DNA of 64,000 nucleotides from Eledone cirrhosa (GCA_964016885.1 OZ024744.1:39742001-39806000), one strand, 5' to 3'; positions 1 through 62,558 are shown, counted from the stretch's first letter. Translations and numbers: made by a program. The notes: generated from the letters alone by a model not told the origin.

Positions 1-1362
1 AAGGTCATGGAGCGAGTCGTCAGAAAGAAACTAATCACTTTCCTCGAAGAAAATGACCGCCTGACTAGCACGCAACATGGCTTCCGCCCAGGAAGAAGCT
101 GCCTTACACAGCTGCTACATCACTACGACTGGGTACTGAGACAGCTACTAGACAGCTCACATGTAGACGTGATATATCTTGACTTTGCGAAGGCCTTTGA
201 CAAGGTCGACCACGGAATGATATGTCACAAACTACACGGACTCGGCATAACTGGAAAAGTAGGTGAGTGGCTGCATGGCTTCCTGAGGGACAGAAGCCAG
301 GCAGTCGCAGCAAATGGGGCCCTCTCGAGGGAAACACCGATAACAAGTGGGGTGCCTCAGGGGACAGTCCTGGGACCACTACTGTTTTTGGTGGCTCTCT
401 CGGACATGCCCTCTGTGGTGCATGCAACAACATCCCTCACTAGCTATGCTGATGACACTAAGGTAGCACAGGCAATCAAAAACCCGGCTGACGCTGCCCT
501 CTTACAGCAGGATCTGGATGCCATATACAGATGGGCGGAAGAAAACAACATGCAGTTTAATGCTGGCAAATTCCAAGCCCTACAATACAAACCTGCAAAC
601 ACAAACACAAATATAGCGGAACACAGCTACACAGGACCAGGAGGGACCGATATCCCCGTGTCAAAATCGATACGAGACCTGGGCATAGACATGAGCGATG
701 ATGCATCTTTTTCTTCACACATCATGAAGGTGGCGACAGCATGTAGACGATTCGCTGGCAGGATCTTGAGGACTTTCCTTACAAGAGATCGAGACACCAT
801 GTTGACACTGTGGAGGACTTTTGTCCTAAGCCGCCTGGACTACTGCTCCCAGCTGTGGTCACCCCATAGTGTCAAACTAACCACAGAGCTTGAGGCAATC
901 CAGCGAAGCTACACCAAGAGGATTGCCAAGATGAGGGAGACAAGCTACTGGGAGAGGCTGAAGGAACTGAACCTCTACTCCTTGGAGCGAAGACGGGAGA
1001 GATACGCAGTGATCTACATGTGGAAAATCCTGGAGGGACTAGCACCAAACTTTGGCATTGGGAGCTGGACCAACCGTCGAACAGGACGTCACTGTGTGGT
1101 GCCAAAGGTCCCGTCTTCCACATCTAGAATAAGGAGCAGGTATTGCAATAGCCTGGGATTCAAGGGCCCTCAACTCTTCAACAGGCTGCCGAGGCATCTG
1201 CGAGACTTGCATGACGTGGAGGTGGATGTCTTTAAGAAACATCTCGACACCTTGTTATCCAGGATCCCGGATGAGCCCACAGCAAGACACGAGGGAAACC
1301 TAAGGGCAGCAGCAACAAACTCCCTCCTACACCAGTGGCCAACCTATACAGGCTGGAGATAA
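1..1362 (+). CDS. CR1-like ORF2 reverse transcriptase, C-terminal part
   Basis: Open frame from base 1 to TAA at 1362 with non-LTR RT motifs and no stops. Confidence 0.88.
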
Positions 1363-1440
1363 AATGTGTAGCAACAAGGGCGGTGCCCCAGCATGGCCTC
1401 AGCCGGATGGCTGAAACAGGTAAAAGAGTAAAAGAGTAAT
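1..1440 (+). mobile_element. CR1-like non-LTR retrotransposon, 3' part (continues past window start)
   Basis: RT motifs [43 protein letters not shown]. Short 3' UTR ends in an 8-bp tail (GTAAAAGA)n at about 1419-1439, followed by (TA)n. Confidence 0.9.
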
Positions 1441-1441
1441 G

Positions 1442-1473
<32 letters not shown>

Positions 1474-1587
1474 TATATATATATGTATATATGTATATAT
1501 ATATATATATATACACATATATATATATATATATGTATATATATGTATATATGTATATATGTATATATATATATATATGTATATATG

Positions 1588-1644
<57 letters not shown>

Positions 1645-1645
1645 G

Positions 1646-1703
<58 letters not shown>

Positions 1704-1736
1704 TGTATATGTATATATATATGTATATATATGTAT

Positions 1737-1833
<97 letters not shown>

Positions 1834-1834
1834 A
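1440..1834. repeat. (TA)n microsatellite with mostly G interruptions
   Basis: Directly visible. Confidence 0.97.
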
Positions 1835-1961
1835 TGTAGGAGGTGAGTTTTATTGTAGTACAATAAAGCAATGCAGATATCGGATAAGAAGCACTCTACA
1901 GTATGTGGGACTGGAGTATGCATAATATAAGATCAAAAGATGGTTAAAGGAGTTCAATATA

Positions 1962-2028
1962 TTTTATTATGCGCATTTCAAAAACAAACATCATCAAACA
2001 ATAATATTTGTGTTTTCATCAGATAAAA
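1962..2028 (-). ncRNA. Minimal type I hammerhead ribozyme of the Penelope-like element (left arm)
   Basis: The - strand reads TTTTAT-CTGATGA-stem II-GAAA-TGCGCA-TA-ATAAAA: catalytic core, palindromic stem III and closing stem I. Confidence 0.75.
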
Positions 2029-3255
2029 CAGGAGAACATGATATGAAGGCTAAAAAAACACTTGTTGATAGTGCAGTTTTAAATCAACATATGAAAAGTG
2101 GTTTTAGATTGATGTGTGATATTGGGAAAAATATTTTATTTAGAGTGGGGGGGAGAGAAAAGGATGAAAAGGGAAGGAGATGAGAGGGAGAGATGGGTGA
2201 TAGAGAGAAAGAGATAGTTTTTATAACTGAGAGGAGATATATTTTATATAGAGGGGTTGAAAACCGTTGGAAGATACTGTATAAATTAAAAATTTTGAAA
2301 ATTAACGAAGGGAGGATATGTGCGAGGAAAAAATATATTATATTTAGGGAGGGGTGGGGGTGGAAAGGATGAAAAAAAGGGGAGGAGATGAGAGTGAAGG
2401 TGGAAAGGGAGAGATGGGTGATAGAGAGAAAGAGATAGTTTTTATAACTGAGAAAAAGATATAGAGAGGTTGGGAACCGTTGGAAGATAATGTATAAATT
2501 AAAGGAATTTGAAAATTAACGAAGGGAAATTATGTATGGAGATAGAGAGAAAAAAATAACGAAGGGAAATTATGTATGGAGATAGAGAGAAAAAAATAAT
2601 AATTGTGGGTGAATATTCTAACGTCAAAAGAAGAAATGTAGGAATTTTAAAATTAGCAAAGAGAAAAAGTTTATGTGTAGAAGGATTTGAGAAAAATAAT
2701 GTGAAGTTAAAGTTTTTATATTGAATTCATATGTATTAATAATGAGTTCGTTGATGGGGAGAAAAAAATAATAATAAATTAAGGATGAAATTGAGATTAA
2801 AAAGATTTATGATAGAGAGAAAAAATAATAATGATTGCGGATGAATACTCAAAATGTCAAAAACAAATGTTATTGTTTTACGAGGAGATATAATGAGGGT
2901 GATGAGTAAACGGGTATTATAGAGTGTATAATGCCCTTTAAAGTAAGGTAGATGGGTATATTTTAAAGAATATATGAGTATATATTAAAAAAAATATATA
3001 ATAATAAATTAAGGATGAAATTGAGATTAAAAAGATTTATGATAGAGGGAAAAAAATAATAATGATTGCGGATGAATATTCAAAATGTCAAAAACAAATG
3101 TTATTGTTTTACGAGAAGATAGGATGAGGGTAATGAGTAAACGAGTATTATAGAGTGTATAATGCCCTTTAAAGTAAGGTAGATGGGTATATTTTAAAGA
3201 GGTGTATGTATATGTGCCTTTGAGAAAAGATTCTAAATTGATAAAGAATTGAATA

Positions 3256-5208
3256 TTAACTGTATACTTTGTGAAAAGTTCTATGGAATTTATGCAGGCA
3301 GATGGAAAACAAATCCGAGCGTCTATTTATTATGGATTCTAGGTTAGAGATAATGGTAAATTTTTCATTTAGGCAGAGATTACAGATTTTAGATAGAGAG
3401 CTGTTCAAGTACGAGGATGCAGAAGAAATCTTTTTCCAAAAGATGTTATATTTAATGTTTTTGTCTTTTAAGGACCATATGAGTTCTGAGAGAGCAGTGT
3501 TAGTTCTTTTAAGTTTGTATTTGAAAGATGAATGATGATTATAGAGACGAGCTTTAAAAGAGGTGGAAGTGGAGCCAAAATAGGTGAAGGAATTGGTGCT
3601 AGTTATAATTTTACATTCATAAATTAAGTTTTTATCGAGGCAATGGTTGTTGAGAGGACATTTATTTTTAATGCGGCAGTTGCAATTAGAGAGATTATTA
3701 ATGAGTGATCTAGTGTTATCTATAGAAGGAATTGGATTGGAGAAGTTGTTTGCGATAGGAATAATAGTTTCTTGATTTAGAGTTGGATTATGAACATTTA
3801 GCGAAGTTGTGTTTGACGTTGCATTTGGGTTTACAGAAGTTAGCCTAGGGTTTACAATGACGTCAGGAGTACTATTATTGTTATTATGAGATTCAATATT
3901 GGAAGGAAGAGATTTAGTATTTAATATTTTGTTGTTGTGTTTAGAGATGATGTTGGAAATATTGGAGGATGTAGAATACGAAAATTTGATGGTGTGTTTG
4001 TTAAATATTTTACTATAGATATGTGAGGGAGGGAAGCATTTATTTAAGGCACTAAAAAATAATTTAGGAATATTGTTATTAATAGAGATGGAGAAAGGAG
4101 CATTATACCAGATTATGTTTTTGTATCTAGGTCTTTTATTAAAATTATTGGAATGGTTATGATTAAATATTCTACTGTAAGTTTTCCTAGAATTTGTTTC
4201 TTTATTATATTTGATTTTATCTGGATAGCCGGCTTTAGAAAGTGCGTTATTATAGTAATTGGCGTTAGCATCAAAGATGTTTTTATTAGAAGATATGTTA
4301 GATATTCTATTTCCAATATTATTAACTATAGCATTCTTGATATTGGTAGGATGGTTAGATTTAAAGTTAACATAATTAAGATTCTCATTGTTTTTATGGT
4401 AAGGGTAATATAGGCCAGTGTCAAGATTAAGAGATACATCCAAGAAATTAGCTAGTTTGGTACTATTATCAAATTCAATTTTTAGGTTATGTTGGTTAAA
4501 GAGATTACGTATATTGTTCTTAATAATATTAAGTTTAACTGTATTGCAATTTAGGATAGTAAAGAGTCCATCGTCACGATAAATTCCACCGCGAAGTTGA
4601 GGAATTTTCCGACTCAAAGAGTTCAAAATGAAGATACCAATTAAATCAGTCAATTGGGATGAATCGGATGCTCCCATTGTGATGTCGAAGTTGTTAGAGG
4701 TATCGGCTCTGGTCCAATATTCGTTGTTGAACTCTAGGATGGTTTTACGTGCGGTGAGGATGATGTGAAGTTCATCTGTGGTGATGTCAGAATATTTAAG
4801 TGCGAAAGATAGAGCATTATTGAGAAGTGAAGGCGAAATGGAGGAATAGTAGCTGGCAATATCGAATTGAATAAATTTTAGTTTGTTTTTATTATCCAAT
4901 TTGTTGAACCAGCCAATCACTTCAGAAGTACCAAACCATAAATTTAGGTTTAAAGAAGAGCAATTAGAACTAACCTGTGGGATAATCCTATCCAAGATGG
5001 CTTTACTAACAACCCCCAGATCAGATTTAGAGGGGGCGATTAATCTAACAGGTAGTTCAGTGCGAAAATTGTTTTTGTGATCCTTGAGATTTATCCTCGG
5101 AGTTCTTGGGAGGAATGGTTCGGTCTTTTTTTCAATGCCAAGTTTTGACATAATCTCATAGGCTTCAAGGTTTATGCATTCTAAATTTTCATGGTTGGTT
5201 TTACGATA
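3256..5208 (-). CDS. Penelope-like RT plus GIY-YIG endonuclease, 5'-truncated at the inversion point
   Basis: RT motifs FDIASYYSSI, ITMGAS, IYRDDG, FLDV. Cys motif CNCRIKNKCPLNNHC. GIY-YIG-like LIYECKI...YFGST...FKARLYNHHSSF...CNLCLNEK...INRRS. The frame stays open upstream of the ATG at 5151 to the junction at 5208. Confidence 0.88.
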   Translation of the reverse strand, partial: YRKTNHENLECINLEAYEIMSKLGIEKKTEPFLPRTPRINLKDHKNNFRTELPVRLIAPSKSDLGVVSKAILDRIIPQVSSNCSSLNLNLWFGTSEVIGWFNKLDNKNKLKFIQFDIASYYSSISPSLLNNALSFALKYSDITTDELHIILTARKTILEFNNEYWTRADTSNNFDITMGASDSSQLTDLIGIFILNSLSRKIPQLRGGIYRDDGLFTILNCNTVKLNIIKNNIRNLFNQHNLKIEFDNSTKLANFLDVSLNLDTGLYYPYHKNNENLNYVNFKSNHPTNIKNAIVNNIGNRISNISSNKNIFDANANYYNNALSKAGYPDKIKYNKETNSRKTYSRIFNHNHSNNFNKRPRYKNIIWYNAPFSISINNNIPKLFFSALNKCFPPSHIYSKIFNKHTIKFSYSTSSNISNIISKHNNKILNTKSLPSNIESHNNNNSTPDVIVNPRLTSVNPNATSNTTSLNVHNPTLNQETIIPIANNFSNPIPSIDNTRSLINNLSNCNCRIKNKCPLNNHCLDKNLIYECKIITSTNSFTYFGSTSTSFKARLYNHHSSFKYKLKRTNTALSELIWSLKDKNIKYNIFWKKISSASSYLNSSLSKICNLCLNEKFTIISNLESIINRRSDLFSICLHKFHRTFHKVYS

Positions 5209-27342: not shown

Positions 27343-27574
27343 GTATATATATATATATATCATCTGCATCAACGTTTAATCTCCACTACAGGTCATATAA
27401 AGTGCAGAGTAGTTGTCATCATCATCATCTTCATTTAACGTCCATCTTCCACGCTAACATGGGTTAGACGGTCATCATGTGTGTATATATTCACACATAT
27501 ATATATATATACACACATATATGTGTGTGTGCGTGTGTGTATATTTGCATGTGACCATGTATTGAATTCTTCAG

Positions 27575-27753
27575 TTTTGCAGAAAGCAATTGAAATTGAA
27601 GAAGATGATGTCCATTATCATAGAGACGAATTGATTAAACGATGTCAGAACAGATGGACAAAGAAAGAATTGTTGGCTGAAGAAAAAGAGCAGCAAGAAA
27701 TTCGGCAACAACTAATAGAAAAGAAATCCAGAGAATTGGAAGAAGAAAGACAG
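27575..27753 (+). CDS. Exon of a SWAP70/DEF6-like host gene (end of PH domain, start of coiled coil)
   Basis: Acceptor ttcttcag| and donor CAG|gtaaag (phase 0); peptide LQKAIEIEEDDVHYHRDE...KSRELEEERQ. An alternative acceptor at 27583 is possible. Confidence 0.72.
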
Positions 27754-28769
27754 GTAAAGATTGTATTATACATTATTTATAATCATCATCATCGTTTAAT
27801 ATCAAATTTCCATGCTTGCATGGGCTAGATGGGTTGTCATGCTATGAAACAAGTCAGATCAGGTCTTGAATGGACAATCTGTATTTTGGCTTGGTTTCTA
27901 CAGCTGGATGCCCTTCCTAACACCAACCATGTTACAGTGTGGACTGGGTGCTTTTTTGTCATATCACCAGTGCAACCGCTTTACTGGGTAGACAGGATGC
28001 TTTTGTTGTTGTTGTACCAGCTCTATCATTGTACAGGATAGACTAAGTACTTTATTATTTTGGCAGCAACACTGTAGAAGAGCAAGTGTGGAGCACAAAC
28101 TTCCCATGCTTGTACAGAACAATCTGCTCATTAAATTAATAAGTGGCTGAGCATTCTACAGACACATACTCCTTGTTCAAGGCCTCAACAATCACTGTAA
28201 ATCAAACTTACAATGTTAAAATCAAGAACTAAATACACTAACACACATAAATACAGTATATATAGGCACAGACATATATATAAGAAGTTCACTTTGCAAC
28301 AACATGGTTTCGGATTCAGTCCCACTGCATGGTACCTTTGGAAAATGTCTCCTACTGTAGCTAATTGTTGGCCAATGTATTGTGGTTGGAATGTGGTAGA
28401 AAAAAACTGTAGGAACTTGTCAAGTGTGTGTGTGTGTATCTGTGTATCATCATCATCACCGTTGTACGTCCATTCTTCCACGCTAGCATGGGTTAGCTGG
28501 GTTGTCCTGTTGTGGGCAGTGCCTGGTTGGCTGACCTTGTCTTGCTCATACGGGAACTGATTCTGGCTTGATTTCTACAGCTGGATGCCCTTCCTAACAC
28601 CAACCTCATTTACAGTGAGTACTGGGTGCTTTTTTTCCCTGGCGCCTACATGACCACTTTACAGTGAGTGCTGGGTGCTTTTTTGTTGTGACACCTCCAC
28701 GACCACTTGGAGGGAGTGGGAGCACATTGTCTATATGCTTCAGCTTCAGCTTGTACCAGTGGGAAGTCA

Positions 28770-51198: not shown

Positions 51199-54100
51199 TC
51201 TATTTATTAATTTCAAGAACGTCAGTATTCCGTGTGTAATAATTCTCGATTATTATTGGTTCATAGGTTTCAAACGACTCTGCCCACCTCAACGACGCCA
51301 AACTGAAATTAATATGCATAATGCCAATGAGGGAGTGAGAGGGGAGAGTGTGAATGCTGTGTTCAATAACTATTAACATGTGTGCGTGTGTATGTATGTG
51401 CGCATATGTTTATGTGTGTGTGCATGCATGCAGCGTTCCACAGAAAGTAAAAACTATCAACATGTGTGCGTGTGTAAGTTTGCGTGCGTGTGCGCGTTTC
51501 CATGCGTGTGTGTGTTTCACAATCGCCACGCAGTTTATCTGTCTGTGTGCCTGTCTGTCAGTCTAACATGCACAGAGTTATGAAGGGAGTAAATAGGGAC
51601 CTTTCTTTACATTGACGGACATCTTTTATATTTATTATTGTGTCATTTTTTGACAATTGCTCGAAATGAATACTGATAATAAAAGCAATTCGACTTTATC
51701 AAACAGTGAACTACAGAGGTGACAGCGTGCAGCCAGCAATGAAGAAAAATGGGCCGAACAGTCCCATCGGAACGTCGAACTTCAGAGGCGAAGACGTGCC
51801 GCCATGAATGAAGAGGAACTGGCTGAACAACGCCAACGAAACACTGGAGCCAAGCAGCGACGGCGTGCTGCGATAGTTGAAGACGAACTGGCTGAGCATC
51901 ATCAGCAGATGGCCAGAATTCATCAGCAACGGCGTGCTGCGATGGATGAAGAGGAGCTGGCTGAACAGCGCCAGCGCAATACAGAAGTTCAGAGAATGTC
52001 TCGCCAAAGTGCTCCTCATTCCAGTAAAGAGGCTAGAAGGCGAACGAATGATATTAAAAATGGATCAGGGCAACTGTGTCATTTTCAGATAGGTGGACAA
52101 GCAGAGTGTCCACATTGTGGAGCATTGCTTTGGAGGCACAAAAAAACGTGGACCATAATGTGCTGTCATAAAGGAGCAGTTCAACTAGAACCCTTGCGAA
52201 TGCCGGATAATGAGGAGTCACCGGAGTTTAAAATACTAAGTATGTAGGGTGATCAAGGAGACCGAGGTAGATTTCTGCGCAAATATTCGCGGCAAATTAA
52301 CAATTCATTAGCTTTAGCATCGCAGAGAGTTAGTGAGATGTTTGAGAGTGGAGCATGGCAACCGAATGTAGTCATTCAAGGCCGTTTGTATCATTGGAGA
52401 GAGGCCTCGATTAGCTCAAATTTACATTAACGATCCAGATTATAGTGAATCAGAGGAGGATATCAGGATCAGTTGGATGAAGTTGCCGGGAAATATAACT
52501 GAACTTGAATGGCAAAGGTTAAGTGATTTGATCCGTGATTTGCAATCATGGCTTAGACAGTGTAATCCTTATGTTATGGATTTCATGTTGGTGACTGAAC
52601 TGCAAAATGTTCAGCAGCAAACATTGGTGATTAAGGCTGACGCAGTGCCAAGGAATCAACACGAACGGCGATATAATGCCCCTGAAGGATTTCGTGAAGT
52701 TGCTGTGTTGATGGACGATAAGCCTGGATCGAGAGATATTGTCCTCAATCGCAGAGATGGTGGTCTCAGGACTATCAATGAGTCAAATAGGGCATACGCT
52801 CCATTGCATTATGTTCTTTTATTCCCAAAACGTGAAAATGGATGGAACATGTCTGTTCATTTAGATGATCATGAGAATCAGCATCAACAGGGAGGTGGCA
52901 ATAGACACAGTAATTCGATTCGCGACTTTTACGTGTTCCATTTGAACGAGAGGTATCAACAGAGAAATGCGCTATTTCAAGCCAGCAGATTGTTCCAGGA
53001 ATACTGTTGTATGGCATTCGCAAAGATCGAAAATCAAAGGCTAAATTATATAGCTACACATCAGCAACATATCAGAGCTGAATTGTATAATAATATACAG
53101 GATGCGATAACAGCCGATGATGCCAATTACAAGCAAATTGGTCGACGCATCATTTTGCCATCGTCGTTCATCGGCGGCCCGAGATATATGAACATTCGCT
53201 ATCAGGATGCAATGGCTATTGTCAGAAAGTTTGGAAAGCCAGATTTGTTTATAACGGTTACATGCAATCTTGAATGGACTGATATTAAGGATGCACTTTT
53301 GCCAGGACAACAGCCAAAGGACCGCGTCCTGATATTGTGGCAAGAGTATTCAAAGGATATCTGAAAAAGATAATGGATGATGTGGAAAAAGAGGGAATCT
53401 TTGGAGGTATAGTTGCTTTTACATACGTAATTGAATTCCAAAAAAGAGGATTGCCACATGCACATTTGCTGATCATTTTACATAGAGATTTCAAATTGAG
53501 ATGTGCTGAGGATGTCGACAGGCCCTACGCAACTTGATGGCAAAGTCAATGTTGCACAACCAATGCGGAGTGGCAAATCGGAAAGTGCCTTGCATGAGAA
53601 ATGGCCAATGCAGTAAGCACTTTCCGAAATCTTTTGTCCCCCGAACACTTCCTGGAACGATGGGGATGCTCATCCCTCATACAGAAGACGGTCGCCTGCA
53701 GATGGCGGTTTGGTCGAAAATGTAAACGGTCGACAGGTTACAAATCAATGGGTTGTGCCATACAATCCATATTTGATTATGAAATATCGTTGTTATATTA
53801 ATGTGGAAATTTGTAGCTCAGTGAAAGCTTGCAAATATCTATTCAAATATGTTTACAAAGGTCATGATCGGGCAATGATCAATGCCAGGAATGAGGAAGC
53901 GAACCAAGGAGGTGAAGTTGGCAGGTTCCAGGATGTTCGCTCGATTGGATCTAGCGAAGCTTGCTGGAGATTGTTCGATTTTGATCTCAATGAACGCAAA
54001 CCCAGCGTTCAGAAACTGTTGGTTCACTTAGAGAATAGGCAAATGGTCTGTTTTCAGGACACTAGAAGAGGTGTCGAAAGAATTGCTAACGCACCACCTC

Positions 54101-57100
54101 CTAAGACGGAATTGACTGAGTGGTTCAAGCATAATAGGGAACATGCTTTGAACCCGGATCAAAGGCAACTCCACTGCGATTTCCCTTCGCACTATACGTG
54201 GGATAAGAAGGGAAAAAAATGGAATGATAGAAAACAAAAGTTTAGATTCATGACTATTGGACGGGTTTGTAATGTCCATCCAGCATCTGGTGATGTGTTT
54301 TATCTCCAAATTCTGTTGCATAATGATTTTTCGAGAGGTAAACAGAGCTTTGCTGATTTGTAAACAATCAATGGCGTGGAATATGAAACATACCAGGCTG
54401 TGTGTCAGCATCTGGGACGCCTTCAGGATGATGCTGAATGGAATAACGCCATAGAAGCTGCAGGAACAACACAGATGCCAGCTCAAATAAGGCAGTTGTT
54501 TGTCACGATTCTAGGATTCTGCAATCCTGCCGATCCAAGAGAGTTATTTGAACGCCATTGGGGAATTATGGCTGATCGTTTTAGGCATCATCTTCAGGTC
54601 GATGATGAAACTTTGATGAAAGCTATTGTTTTGCTCAATATTGAGCAACTGCTTGAAGTTCATTTTAAATTTTTAACAGATTTCAATTTGGCAATTCCTG
54701 ATGAAGAAATGCGGCAACGTGTCTTAGCATTGAACATGAGATTGCAGCTTAGACGGCTGCCACTTGATCGGAGGGAACTATTCTAGTTTGATCCACTGGA
54801 ACAGCAATGTATTGTGGATGAACGTATGCCAATGTTGACCCAATCTCATAGAGAATTGGTCGATGGCGTTCTCCACTTGATTTCCACTAATGAGCAACTT
54901 TGTGCTTTCATAGATGCTCCAGGAGGCACCGGAAAGACATTTTGTTTCAACACTATGTTATCGGCAGTCAGAACTCATAGGAAGATTGCTCTCTCTGTGG
55001 CCACCAGTGGGATCACTGCCACTTTGCTGAGTGGTGGAAGGACCTTCCACTCATGCTTCAAGGCTCCATTGGCTCCGGATGAGTTGAGTGTCTGTAACAT
55101 TACAGGACAAAGTGAACTCGCGGGCCTTATACGCAATACGTCTCTGATTATTTGGGACGAGGCTCCAATGGCACACAGATATTTGCTGGAGGCATTGGAC
55201 AGAACTTTGAGAGATATCTGCGGTAGTGACCTGCCATTCGGTGGTAAGACTATCGTTCTTGGTGGCGATTTCAGACAGGTGCTACCAATTGTTAGGAATG
55301 CTCAAAGAGAACAAATTGTTGATGCATGTCTGAAAAAGTCCCCGTTGTGGCGCCATTTCAGAGTTTTGCGATTACACGATAATATGCGACTTCGTATGTT
55401 CGGGCAAGATAAAGAGGCTGAGACATACGGCCGATGGTTGATGCAGTTGGGAAACGATGAATTGCCACATGTTGGTGATAATCAGACTGTAAGAATCCCA
55501 GACCATTTGGTCATGCCACTGGACTGCCAAGCATTGATTGACTGGGTGTTCCCTAATTTGAATGCTTTTTGGCAGAATATCTCCTGGATATCAGAACACG
55601 TTATTCTAACTCATACGAATGCAACGGTCAATGAAATAAATTCACAAGTAGCCGGAATGTTTCCTGGAGAGGAATGGTTGACCGTCAGTGCGGATGCAAT
55701 GGAGCCTAATCAACAGAACAATAAGGATGTTCCAACTGAGTATCTGAATTCACTTCAAATACCCGGATTTCCCCCACATATTTTGAGGTTGAAAAAGGGT
55801 ATGCCGATTATATTGCTTAGAAATATCAATCATAAAATAGGTCTTTGCTATGGTACCAGATTGATTGTTGAGAGATTGATTAACGGAAGAGTTTTAGAAG
55901 CTAAACTCCCAGGCAGAGAGGAATTGGTTCTCATTCCGAGGATCATGCTGAGACCAAGTGAAGATCTGCTGCCATTCATTTGGCAAAGGAGACAGTTTCC
56001 CGTCAATTTGGCCTTCTCCATGACTGTTAACAAGGCACAGAGACAGGCTTTCAAGCGAGTCAGTGTCTACTTGAATGATCCAGCTTTCAGCCATGGGCAA
56101 CTGTATGTTGCTGCATCTCAAGTGTGCGATCCTGATGGTGTAAAATTTGCAATTGATACCACTAACAGAGGAACAAACCTGAATATTGTCTATAATGAAG
56201 CTTTGAGCTGATGTATGCATATCTTTAATGCTAACAATAAGTGATGTAAATGATTCAGACATTGGTGTCCTTTGATCAGTGTTGTGAGCTTTGACAGAGT
56301 TATCATTTCTGTTCAATGTCATTTATTGTCGATAATGAGCAATAAAAACCAACAAGTATTGGTAGAAATTGCCTTCAAATTTATCGCTTCTGATAGCGGT
56401 GGTAATAAAACCTCATCATATGCTGAGTCTGGCAAAATGTTTGGTGCCTATGGCCGGCCAGGGCTAGAGTAATATTGAAAAATGATTCTATTTTCGAAGT
56501 AGAAGGATCCGCCATTTGGAGTTCAAACCAGGCCACCTCCCCGAGTTGAACTCTGGGCAATATTGACTGTCTATTACTCAGTGGCTAAGAGCCTGGAAAT
56601 TACAGAATAAATTATTGTGTCATATAATTTGTTGTTTTATTATTATAGCTGACCACTTATAGATAAGCATGTTATCAAATCCATATTAATTTGGCATTTG
56701 TATAAACCATTTCAAGTAAATAGGGACCTTTTTTACATTGACGGACATCTTTTTTATTAATTATCTATATCTATATCTACATATAATATAAAAGATTGGA
56801 ACTTCCATAATCCTTTTGAGAAACGTGGAACAAACACGTCTATGCAATGATACACGTTTTACAGTCAGGCAGAAGATGAACCATCTCCTAGAGGTCACTA
56901 TTCTAGGTGCTCCCACCTAGAATTGTTCATATACTATGCACAAACGGTACAACGAAGAATCTGGTATATCTGGAAGATTTTTTTACTGTTTTTGGTATCG
57001 CACAGACACCACGGACTCGCCTCATACTGTAACCAGACAAACATCCAATACAGTCATTTTCTCTTTTACCTGTCTTCTCTTATCATCTGTTTACCCGGGC

Positions 57101-57785: not shown

Positions 57786-58293
57786 AAAAGAGAAAACACA
57801 GGTAAGCATTAAAAAAAAGATTTTATCCAAGTATTTACGACCGTTTCATTGGTAACTGCAACCTTATATTGCTATACTGCAAATAGCAGCCACTCAATGA
57901 TAATTGTTGTACACGTCCAAATGATCAAAATAGTGAATAAGTTACTCTTAAAAAGTTCTTAATATATAGAAAAACATTTTTTTGTAATTGTATTTACTAG
58001 TATAGAGAGAGAGGAAGAGGATTGACAAAGTGGATTGTCAATCCACTTTCTAATTCCTCTTCCTCTCTCTCTATACTAGTAAATACAATTACAAAAAAAT
58101 GTTTTTCTATATATTAAGAACTTTTTAAGAGTAACTTATTCACTATTTTGATCATTTGGACGTGTACAACAATTATTATTGAGTGGCTGCTATTTGCAGT
58201 ATAGCAATATAAGGTTGCAGTTACCAATGAAACGGTCGTAAATACCTGGATAAAATCCTTTTTTTAATGCTTACCTGTGTTTTCTCTTTTATC
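57781..58293. repeat. About 510-bp near-perfect palindrome centred at 58038
   Basis: The arms mirror each other; the centre is aaagtggattg-t-caatccacttt. Confidence 0.92.
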
Positions 58294-58571: not shown

Positions 58572-60012
58572 TATATTGAGCGTTCACAGAGTAGGATGCC
58601 CACATAGGAAGATACACACACACATATGTGTGTGTGTGTATGTGTGTATGAGCTGCTAGAGGCCTACTTCCATAGAAATAGAAATAAACTGATGTGAATC
58701 TGGCAAAAGAAATGTGTAAAGTAAGTTAAATAAATTCATATATAATATATACTATCAAATAAACCTGGATATGAACGTGCTGTGTACATTTCCATTTCTA
58801 TGTTTAAAATAGTAGTTCTCATTGTTAGTTCTGGTGACTTGCTGAAAAGCATCTTAAATTTATGTTGTCAATAATAATATAAACAGAACAGCAGCAAGAC
58901 TAATATATTATTTTATTTTATTTTCCTTTAGTCTGTGTGTGGTTTCCTGTTTAAAATATGGTGCAACATAGCCCTGCATGTTGTAGCATTGCCACCAGTA
59001 AATGCATGAAACTGTAAACAATTGCTTAAAAAAAAAGATCCTATGATTAGTATGAAGCTAACCTCTACATTAGCAGGGGAAAAGGATATTAAAACTGTCA
59101 AGGAGGGAAAGACAGTTCCCATGGCCCTTTTCAGGGTCTCTGAAACTGGTAGGCAGAAGACAGGAAAATATTCTCAAATGAAGAACCTAGCCTGTATGTT
59201 TGCGATATAGTGAATTCCTCTAAAGGCACACAAGAACCTGTTGGTGGTATGTAACTAGGCAATAGATTCAGTCTATGAAACATGCATATGTACACACATA
59301 GATATGTAGGTAGATGAGTGGGTGGATTGATGAACTGGTGAATGCAGGGCTGGATTAAGACCTTTAAAAATCCTAAACACAAAAAAGATTATGATACCCT
59401 CATTTAGAATATTTATAGAACAACCCCAGTATATCCTATCCTATTTTAGGGGCAGGATTTTACCTATATAGTTGACGAAGGCCTCATATCAAATTTTGAG
59501 CTACATATCTTTAGAATAATTTGTATGACAGCTTGGCTTTACATCACAATTGACCATTTCCTCCACAGTTGATTTCTATCATATTAAGTGAGAGTGAGAG
59601 TGATGTGATGTGAGAAAGTGATATAGAGGAAGAATTGATCCTAGTATTTGAACTAGTACTTTATTTATCAACCTCAAAAAGATGAAAACAAAGTTGACTT
59701 CTGTGGAATTTGAAAGTTGTAACTAGGAAGCAAAAAAACAAAACAAAACAACAACAGATATAATATGTTCTATCCCATAAGAAGATGTTATGCTCTCACA
59801 TGAAATTAATGAGTAATGATTTGACTCTGGAATTTATTACAGTAAAGAAAAGTAGAGATAGAAAGAATCTTCAACAATAAATAACTCTGTGCAGGCTTGT
59901 TTCATGTCCTTAATTAAGGGATCATTGTCATCCCCATCACCACCACTATCATCACCATCACCACCATCATTATCATTGTCGTTATTTTATGCTCACTTTC
60001 CATGTTTGCATG

Positions 60013-60847
60013 TGTAACACTCTCTAGACAGGAAGTAGCTGGAGTTACTTGCCGTTGAGGTTGCAGAACCTTCTTTGTCACTTCCGTCCGGGGAACTATA
60101 AAAGGAGAGAGCTGAAAGCTATCACCCTCTCATTTCACCTTTCGGCCAGGCGCGTTCCGTCGACGGTATACTCTCTCATTTCCTGACCAGTGAAAAGGTA
60201 AACAACTAACTAACTTTCTTTCGTCGTGAAATCACTAGCCAACATGTAACACAACAATAACCACGGCCTGGCAACACTTCAGCCAGTAGACCGTGTCTTC
60301 TGAAATCCTTAATTCATTCTTTCATCTCTCTTGGCATGTCAACTATTCAGCTCTACTCAGCTCAATCTTCGTAAATAAATATTGTACATACAACCCAGTG
60401 TCCTGTTATAATTGGATCACGTCGGAGTCACCAATTATAACAGGACACTGGGTTGTATGTACAATATTTATTTACGAAGATTGAGCTGAGTAGAGCTGAA
60501 TAGTTGACATGCCAAGAGAGATGAAAGAATGAATTAAGGATTGCAGAAGACACGGTCCACTGGTTGAAGTGTTGCCAGGCCGTGGTTATTGTTGTGTTAC
60601 ATGTTGGCTAGTGATTTCACGACGAAAGAAAGTTAGTTAGTTGTTTACCTTTTCACTGGTCAGGAAGTGAGAGAGTATACCTTCGGCGGAACGCGCCTGG
60701 CCGAAGGCCAGCAGCCGAAAGGTGAAATGAGAGGGTGATAGCTTTCAGCTCTCTCCTTTTATAGTTCCCTGGACAGAAGTGATAAAGAAGGTTCTACAAC
60801 CTCAACGGCAAGTAACTCCAACTACTTCCTGTCTAGAGAGCGCTATA
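60013..60847. mobile_element. Palindromic element: two inverted LTR-like arms joined at a tRNA-Trp primer-binding site
   Basis: Arms at about 60013-60415 and 60431-60847; centre ATCACGTCGGAGTCACCA (60416-60433); CATG on both flanks. Confidence 0.78.
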
Positions 60848-62558
60848 CATGCATTGGAGGCATTGTGACAATCTGAAACTAGACCATGTCCTGACTCTTA
60901 CAATTCATATTTTGACATGGTTTCTAATTCCAGATGCTCTTCCTAGTATCAACAGTGTACTGGGTGCATCTATCACTGGGTGGCACCAGCACTACCAAAA
61001 GTTTTTATTTGAACAAAATGAAATATTGTGTTCTGAATTCAAATCCTTTTGTGCTCTAGTTGAGTGATATACTTAATCCATCGCCCAGTTTAACACCACC
61101 ACTTGGTCCTTAGTTGCTTTTAGCAGAGTTCACTCTGTTGCAATCATTTGGTCCATGTTTTAATTTGAGTATATCATCTTCTATCCAGTTTTTGAAACCC
61201 TAAAAAGTGCTCTTCCCATCCCTGATTAAATAGTAAAAACAAAATGGCTTCATAAAATGTAGAGGAGAGCTGAATGTTGCTCAAAGTTAATGCATTGCAA
61301 TTTACAGATCAGTAAATGGATTAGAAAACTTAAAGATATGTAACAAAAATATGATGAAATACAGAGAATTAAAAACTATACTAGTATTTTTTTTATTACT
61401 TAGTCAGAGAGGGACTCTGACCAAGACTGGTGGGTGGGAGGGAGCAAGTTATTCTAAAACTGAAGAATTGTCCAAATGCTTGTATCTGACTAAACACTAA
61501 AGACACCCATAAGCCAGATGCTGATGTTAAACTAGGTGAAGGATTAAATCTACCACCCAAGTAGGCCCAAGTGGGATTTGAAATCAGAATGTAAAAAACT
61601 TGGACAGATGCCACAAGGTATCCTATCATTCATACTTCCACCAATCCATCACTCCAAATTGGTACTTTATTTATTGGCCCTTGAAGGATGAAAGGCTACT
61701 TTGATCTCAGCATGATTTGAACTGAAACTATAGTGAACCAAAATGATTACTGCAAAGATATTTCATCCAATACTCTAATGCTTCTGCCTGGCAGATTGAT
61801 TTTGAATACAAATATATCAAGGAAATATTCATAAAGGCTCAACAAAGATAAACATCAAGTAAACTTAACTAAAAATGAGCCAAGGCATAAGCCTCTACAA
61901 GGTTGTTTGACTTGTTAGAAATAGCAACCCAATCTACTTTGAATTATACTCTCCTTACTTATATAAGAAAATAAAGGATATATAAAATATACTTTATTTT
62001 ATTGACCCCGAAAGGATAAAATATGAAGTTGACATTGTCAAGATTTAAATTCAGAATGTAAAGAGCTGGTACAAATGCCACAACTCTGTATATACATACC
62101 CAAAGCTATCTGGATGTTGATAGTTATTATAATCGGTTTGTAAATCTTAATTTATCCTGTTAATTGAGTCTTGTGAACTGTATTATCTTTTGTCAGTATT
62201 TGCTTCACCCTGGAGTTTTTGTCTCTTATGATTTGAATGCATATATATATATATCTGTGTTCATCTCTCCTTACAGTATTATAAGGCTCGGGAAAATGTT
62301 TTCCTTGAGCTACTTTGATTATAAGGGACTAACGTGAGTTTTTAACTCAATATATTCTTTTGATATATATATATTTAATGAAGGGTTAAAAATGAAATGT
62401 TTAGATGGTTATATGTGGTTATTAGTTGATATGATAATAACAAAGTATAATAGGAATAGGTGTAATAACGAGAATATAAAGAATATAATGATTTGGTTAT
62501 ATATAGTTTACTTCACGTGAATCAATTAAAAAGTACATATAAAACAGTTACCAAGAGT

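Follow-up and report, generated by a model that had tools for sequence, protein, structure and literature searches.

A fold-back pair of long terminal repeats centred on a tRNA-Trp copy in an animal genome

The fold-back and its surroundings

The stretch of DNA analysed here, "the window", comprises 64,000 nucleotides (G000:C28:39742001-39806000) of a 3.0-Gb animal assembly and is rich in retroelement frames and simple repeats. From their motifs, we take the frames at 51700-56200 to be Helitron-like Rep/helicase frames, others elsewhere in the window to be RTE-like and Penelope-like reverse transcriptase (RT) frames, and a segment near 27500-27780 to be a possible host exon. The main feature is a fold-back that reads, 5' to 3', CATG, left long terminal repeat (LTR), AT, TGG, ATCACGTCGGAGTCACCA, AT, inverted right LTR and CATG (Table 1). 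A second long palindrome is found at 57786-58290, with 252-nt arms of 98% identity lying 1 nt apart; it is unrelated to the LTR family discussed below and had no match among the loci collected in the analysis. We assume that it recalls the inverted pseudo-LTRs of Penelope-like elements.

Two inverted LTR-like arms of about 400 bp, as claimed in the preliminary description of this DNA, were confirmed; the right arm mirrors the TATAAAAG and AATAAA of the left one, and the pair was recovered as two blocks of 275 nt (98% identity) and 140 nt (94%). The right arm is an LTR with the full primer-binding site (PBS) and the left arm an LTR with TGG only, which bears out the earlier reading. Its statement that both arms start TGTAAC-like holds for the left arm; the right LTR begins TATAGC, TGTAGC being the family start in 17 of the 20 starts counted. 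CATG is present at both ends as described, and being palindromic it is alone no proof of the probable target-site duplication. Folded as RNA, the structure has a predicted energy of -749.5 kcal/mol, and Rfam returned generic hairpin-type matches only, all below the gathering score. No polypurine tract, internal region or coding region was found in the window element.

Table 1. Coordinates of the fold-back features within the window
Feature	Position	Strand	Basis
CATG, left copy of probable 4-bp target-site duplication, palindromic	60009..60012	.	family's duplications are 4 bp
Left LTR, 398 nt, TGTAAC...GTTATA, U3 outward	60013..60410	+	direct-repeat LTR copies elsewhere
TATA-like box TATAAAAG in left LTR, putative function	60097..60104	+	sequence
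AATAAA, polyadenylation-like signal in left LTR, putative function	60374..60379	+	sequence
AT spacer and TGG, unprocessed U5 end with first 3 PBS letters only (short arm)	60411..60415	+	family junction GTTATA AT TGG
TGG of short arm	60413-60415	+	sequence
18-nt PBS copy of tRNA-Trp 3' end ATCACGTCGGAGTCACCA, long arm, one mismatch	60416..60433	-	host tRNA-Trp genes
AT spacer belonging to right LTR	60434..60435	-	sequence
Right LTR, inverted, 412 nt, TATAGC...GTTATA on minus strand, U3 outward	60436..60847	-	LTR comparison; short-read contigs at outer junction
CATG, right copy of probable target-site duplication	60848..60851	.	sequence

It is hardly credible that the structure is an assembly or sequencing fold-back artefact, even though its centre was not among the contig pieces listed (24 of 1398). 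The arms share 96.5% of their aligned letters and differ by 14 substitutions and one 14-nt indel, the kind of scattered difference from which the preliminary description had rightly argued against such an artefact. Moreover, the loop is a tRNA copy, the ends are exact and the structure recurs elsewhere with other joints. The right outer junction is spanned by short-read contigs (60803-61141 in X1 and 60813-61141 in X2), and contigs of two runs match the LTR-flank junction with 0-1 differences, possibly coming from the assembly's own sample, as the contig sets X1-X3 represent one sample that may be the source of the assembly. The empty-site joint was not seen in these three sets or in one RAD run, a result without weight because their coverage is too patchy. 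Nor was any RNA record listed as containing the sequence, which does not count as evidence either.

The junction also bears on the possibility that two independent elements entered the same target in opposite orientations and were each reduced to a solo LTR. Inverted LTR tandems with a target-like motif at the junction were reported in Drosophila (PMC5932611). In the window, however, the inner ends are unprocessed: they carry the AT spacer and letters of the PBS, and the arms have no CATG between them. The junction as assembled refutes a double insertion.

The arms as LTRs and the origin of the central letters

The whole 843-base query gave 1904 candidates, of which 40 were scored, with 92 matches among those scored. 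The arm also turns up in direct-repeat pairs, spaced about 1.8 kb and enclosing a non-coding internal region (e.g. L062), and these define an abundant, tRNA-Trp-primed parent family of about 2.2 kb that is non-coding, its longest frames being about 200 aa. In this family the 5' LTR is followed by AT TGGTGACCCCGA (the PBS) and the 3' LTR is preceded by GGGAGGGGAGTCC (the polypurine tract), so that the arm was indeed found as a direct-orientation LTR followed by a Trp PBS. Solo LTR copies with identical flanking 4-mers (ACAG, AAGC, GTTT, GCTG, AATA and AGGG) account for 6 of the 25 copies listed, and the L009/L017 pair has a 4-bp target duplication too. Direct pairs, PBS, polypurine tract and solo LTRs with 4-bp duplications together mark a real LTR rather than a DNA-transposon repeat: the arm is the LTR of a tRNA-primed LTR retrotransposon.

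Solo LTRs and TRIM/LARD elements are LTR-only or non-coding and have 4-bp duplications, and the parent family fits that kind. The window element differs, as had been claimed, in that its LTRs are inverted and it has neither polypurine tract nor internal region. Nor is it an ordinary MITE, again as proposed, since its junction is single-copy and its arm is a direct-repeat LTR.

The centre had been read as the 3' end of tRNA-Trp with one mismatch, and comparison with the host genes agrees. Five tRNA-Trp(CCA) genes of the host were called, from 2 of the 6 stretches examined; they end ATCACGTCGGGGTCA, and with the added CCA this end matches the centre in 17 of 18 letters, the sole mismatch being at 60426. 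A tRNA-Trp variant with the window's A was sought as its source and rejected: such matches were 4 of the first 100 listed, none was called a tRNA gene at default settings, and 3 of the 4 are followed by CCA, as in PBS copies. A later point mutation is the simpler account of this A. As a separate observation, L055 (G000:C4:353.39-353.49 Mb) is a tandem array of several dozen tRNA-Trp-like 3' ends, with 4 genes called in the 4.4 kb examined.

Letters 13-18 of the centre are absent from the family's usual 12-nt PBS. Among 62 matches to the subfamily LTR end plus ATTGG inspected by eye, by a pattern that passed over matches ending in C, 47 had the 12-nt PBS and 3, the window included, were tRNA-extended; the rest were 2 short fold-back arms and 10 that are not PBSs. 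With a long-PBS pattern, all 8 other LTR ends (two of them one tandem duplicate) carried the full 18-mer followed by differing unrelated sequence. The tRNA copy in the window, 18 nt and thus longer than the family PBS, stops at tRNA position 59. Plus-strand strong-stop DNA was described as ending 18 nt into the tRNA, one letter short of m1A58 (PMC8599865). For Ty1 and Ty3, PMC5371799 presents tRNA-tailed strong-stop DNA as a dead end: another strand, which ends at U5, displaces it. By analogy, the window may join one long and one short end of these two kinds. Base 19 after the 18-mer is spread over A8 C7 T6 G3 (n=24, several rows from one event), which fits misincorporation at m1A58, an agreement to which we give little weight.

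Copy number and look-alike loci

The preliminary description had envisaged a multicopy, minimal palindromic retroelement. This did not hold: the window junction has 1 match genome-wide at <=3 mismatches, and no other palindromic copy with the same junction exists at that threshold, so the window copy is a one-off. A broader pattern (LTR end, <=30 letters, anti-PBS, inverted LTR end) gave 4 places against 0 in the control, namely the window, L002, L051 and L083, each with a different joint. Other patterns yielded further fold-backs in L053 (TGG|CCA), L030 and L093; as the patterns were exact, all these counts are lower bounds. Only 2 two-armed places were seen among the 40 scored of 1904 candidates, and the second has another joint. 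It is therefore very improbable that the palindrome is itself mobile, as a minimal palindromic retroelement or a MITE-like element with further copies. Its TG-type ends, long inverted repeats and 4-bp flank do resemble Ginger-type DNA transposons (PMC2836005), but the single junction match, the four differing junctions, the scarcity of two-armed places and the missing polypurine tract largely refute this reading. The window copy is single and belongs to no mobile family, while the kind of event recurs independently.

Not every candidate proved to be an LTR fold-back. The pattern that yielded L053 gave 6 places, of which 4 are LTR fold-backs and the other 2 (L049, L052) belong to a palindromic repeat unrelated to them; since the reversed control of this pattern gave 32 places, the count alone is no evidence. 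Another fold-back pattern gave 5 places, 3 of them without LTR likeness. The candidates L092, L099, L100 and L101 were rejected, none containing an LTR. L093 is a third pure fold-back, with TGG and mirrored filler, and is uninformative for the duplication; the idea that its palindrome includes the flanks was discarded, the extra symmetry being a TA run.

The closest counterpart is L083 (G000:C5:58.528 Mb, 1123-1912), a pure fold-back of two facing LTRs from a related subfamily that is 72-77% identical to the other LTR types. Its loop is a perfect tRNA-Trp 18-mer, its short arm ends at T, so that the joint differs from the window's, its arms are 94% alike, and non-palindromic CTAC stands on both sides. 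In L063 (G000:C1:248.33 Mb, 940-3878), a whole non-coding element is followed by about 200 nt and an inverted LTR whose PBS is long; U3 forms the outer end on each side, and CCCA flanks both. Where two U3 ends are inserted by concerted integration, direct flanks of this non-palindromic kind are expected. The CTAC duplication in L083 backs the earlier proposal of a strong-stop DNA origin with integration through two U3 ends.

In L061 (G000:C2:400.96 Mb, 2216-4944), a whole element contains an inverted full LTR that stops exactly at the LTR terminus and returns 63 nt before the LTR 3' end. Both L002 and L061 have an inverted LTR ending at the exact terminus, without flank, and a return point inside the LTR, as expected for a free DNA end used as template. 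The exact LTR terminus without unique flank is seen in the inverted copies of the window, L083, L093, L002, L039 and L063. Structures with exact LTR termini and 4-bp direct flanks have arisen independently more than once. The 18-mer occurs in 2 of 4 PBS-bearing fold-backs and in 2 of 49 other junctions (Fisher P=0.025, with subfamilies mixed).

Possible origin and relation to known elements

We consider the fold-back to be probably the outcome of faulty reverse transcription, a product bearing U3 at both ends and inserted by a CsRn1-like Gypsy integrase. Plus-strand synthesis would copy the tRNA as far as the stop at m1A58 and leave an LTR with a tail of 18 nt; the last 6 letters of this tail would find no partner in the 12-nt PBS. 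Another plus strand would run to the end of the minus template and yield LTR-AT-TGG, the TGG representing a residual CCA. The enzyme may then jump onto the displaced strand at the 3' end of its 18-nt tail and copy back to U3; perhaps, alternatively, repair joined the long and short ends. No microhomology or intermediate marking the joining route was seen at the window junction. The two-U3 DNA would be inserted by the integrase as such, or a whole element with an extra inverted LTR may have been inserted and later collapsed by LTR-LTR recombination. Most likely, the fold-back is now a dead fossil.

Differences between the arms offer some insight into its history. Private states common to both arms and absent from 25 other copies are a 4-nt insertion, a short deletion and a G at column 38. 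The left arm alone has the 14-nt deletion, present in 3 of the 25 other copies listed, and a G also present in 3 of 25, two copies having both. Shared private states together with standing variants in the left arm do not separate a one-template from a two-template origin. Most of the arm differences are found towards the outer ends: the outer half has 12 of the 15 in the window and 9 of the 10 in L083, against 5 of 10 in a direct-LTR control; for the window and L083 together this makes 21 of 25 events (P=0.0005). Such outward clustering suggests later arm-to-arm conversion near the centre, probably after insertion, and as conversion could spread shared states, these do not decide the number of templates.

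An unlikely alternative is that a normal copy with an 18-nt PBS was folded back after integration by host replication or repair. This would take two template switches, the returning one relying on a slight resemblance between the two ends of the LTR, and the original target duplication would be kept. The right end of the window fold-back reads TATA, like the family's U5 end, instead of the expected TACA; no other among the 20 short-type LTR starts counted does so, and the right end of L093 is the same. This TATA counts against an aberrant reverse-transcription product, as a post-integration return switch would also produce it and still retain the duplication. The genome also has long palindromes unrelated to the LTR (57786-58290 in the window; L049, L052), L051 is a solo LTR with normal ends and a short internal inversion, and the outward clustering (21 of 25) indicates that the palindrome was probably reworked in the chromosome. 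Against folding after integration, the inverted copies of 6 loci stop precisely where the LTR does, without unique flank, 18-mer substrates are rare (3 of 50) yet appear in 2 of 4 fold-backs, and L083 ends in TACA.

Less likely still, a single strong-stop strand snapped back and primed itself up to U3, the resulting hairpin then entering the genome and being opened by repair. The related copies L030, L039 (GTGAT overlap) and L041/L090 (TCACCAATT) do show self-priming with microhomology, and the arms of the window do have common private states. However, at most one base pairs at the window junction, a hairpin offers one integrase end, so that a 4-bp direct duplication such as CTAC in L083 is unexpected, and the standing variants of the left arm are absent from the right arm.

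An integrase acting on two U3 ends, as an aberrant reverse-transcription product would require, leads to the possible helper. The CsRn1 clade of Ty3/Gypsy (CsRn1, PwRn1, AgCR) is defined by 4-bp duplications and by a tRNA-Trp PBS about 12 nt long (PMC2582038); the window family shares these and the TGT start. Unlike the elements of that clade, the window element lacks coding and internal regions, and its parent family is non-coding. Trp-primed coding elements of this genome (L102, L104, L105) carry a CX2HX9CX3C Gag motif and the order PR-RT-RH-IN; their tie to the window LTR is indirect, through the L083 subfamily and L106. The L104 LTR is 77.7% identical to that of L083 over 148 nt; it has no direct match to the window's short LTR type. 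In L106 (G000:C3:311.74 Mb), an L104-type coding LTR (93% over 753 nt) is followed by the 18-mer and an L083-type non-coding LTR, a chimera suggesting that coding and non-coding elements met in shared particles. Through this indirect tie, the helper of the parent family is likely CsRn1-like.

In the PPT recycling model of yeast Ty1/Ty3 strong-stop DNA, one LTR copy has a tRNA-templated tail that is not inherited as PBS and another ends at or just past U5, as in the window; the Ty3 tail is 12 nt and the products are described from particles (PMC5371799), whereas in the window an 18-nt tail and a short end have been joined and become fixed in the chromosome. Retroviral proviruses can likewise show an unprocessed dinucleotide and PBS letters at the U5 end through rare abnormal integration, but there the PBS end joins host DNA (PMC2797772), whereas here it meets another LTR in inverted orientation, and U3 lies outermost on either side. 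Inversion circles from auto-integration have also been described (PMC7197481). Ginger1, Ginger2 and MITEs resemble the window in form only, with TGT-type termini, inverted terminal repeats and a 4-bp duplication (PMC2836005); the window arms differ in being 400-nt functional-type LTRs, single copy, without transposase or sign of cut-and-paste. Abnormal proviral ends with PBS letters are thus already known, whereas a tail-to-tail LTR pair with a tRNA loop was not among the descriptions found in the literature searched, outside which lay most subscription papers, Repbase and supplements. The window fold-back is likely a recurring by-product and not a new transposon family.

It can be read as a fossil: outside yeast or retroviral particles, the reverse-transcription intermediates that it records are normally not seen. 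Should this be correct, two U3 ends can serve integrase in an animal germ line, LTRs have a concrete path towards becoming terminal inverted repeats, and LTR fold-backs form repeatedly, giving 400-bp hairpins that could feed RNA editing or small-RNA silencing and that would be mis-annotated as MITEs by inverted-repeat finders. A bolder and doubtful generalization is that short-PBS Gypsy elements regularly turn dead-end, tRNA-tailed strong-stop DNA into cleanly integrated two-U3 molecules. If true, this would leave a fossil trace of Ty-like primer recycling in the genome of an animal, and would offer a one-step route from an LTR retrotransposon to TG-ended terminal inverted repeats with a 4-bp duplication. 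It would also fill a gap in the account of how Ginger1 DNA transposons arose; Bao and colleagues regarded the passage from an LTR element to a DNA transposon as unclear and suggested two LTRs in opposite orientation (PMC2836005). No sign of cut-and-paste movement was seen in the window or the fold-back data. L063 already holds a whole element between two-U3 inverted ends, and together with the fold-backs it points to one way in which such ends could arise, with a duplication, in a single event.

Finally, tRNA copies of other lengths were noted. Other Trp-primed families (L043, L045-L047, L057, L060, L087 and L089) have PBS-like tRNA copies of 28-40 nt, extending past position 58. Near 1500 in L037, L069, L079 and L081, a subfamily joint consists of an LTR, a tRNA copy of about 30 nt, in which the m1A58 position is often A, and the end of another LTR with PBS; here an aberrant joint became fixed and was copied, that is, it did spread.
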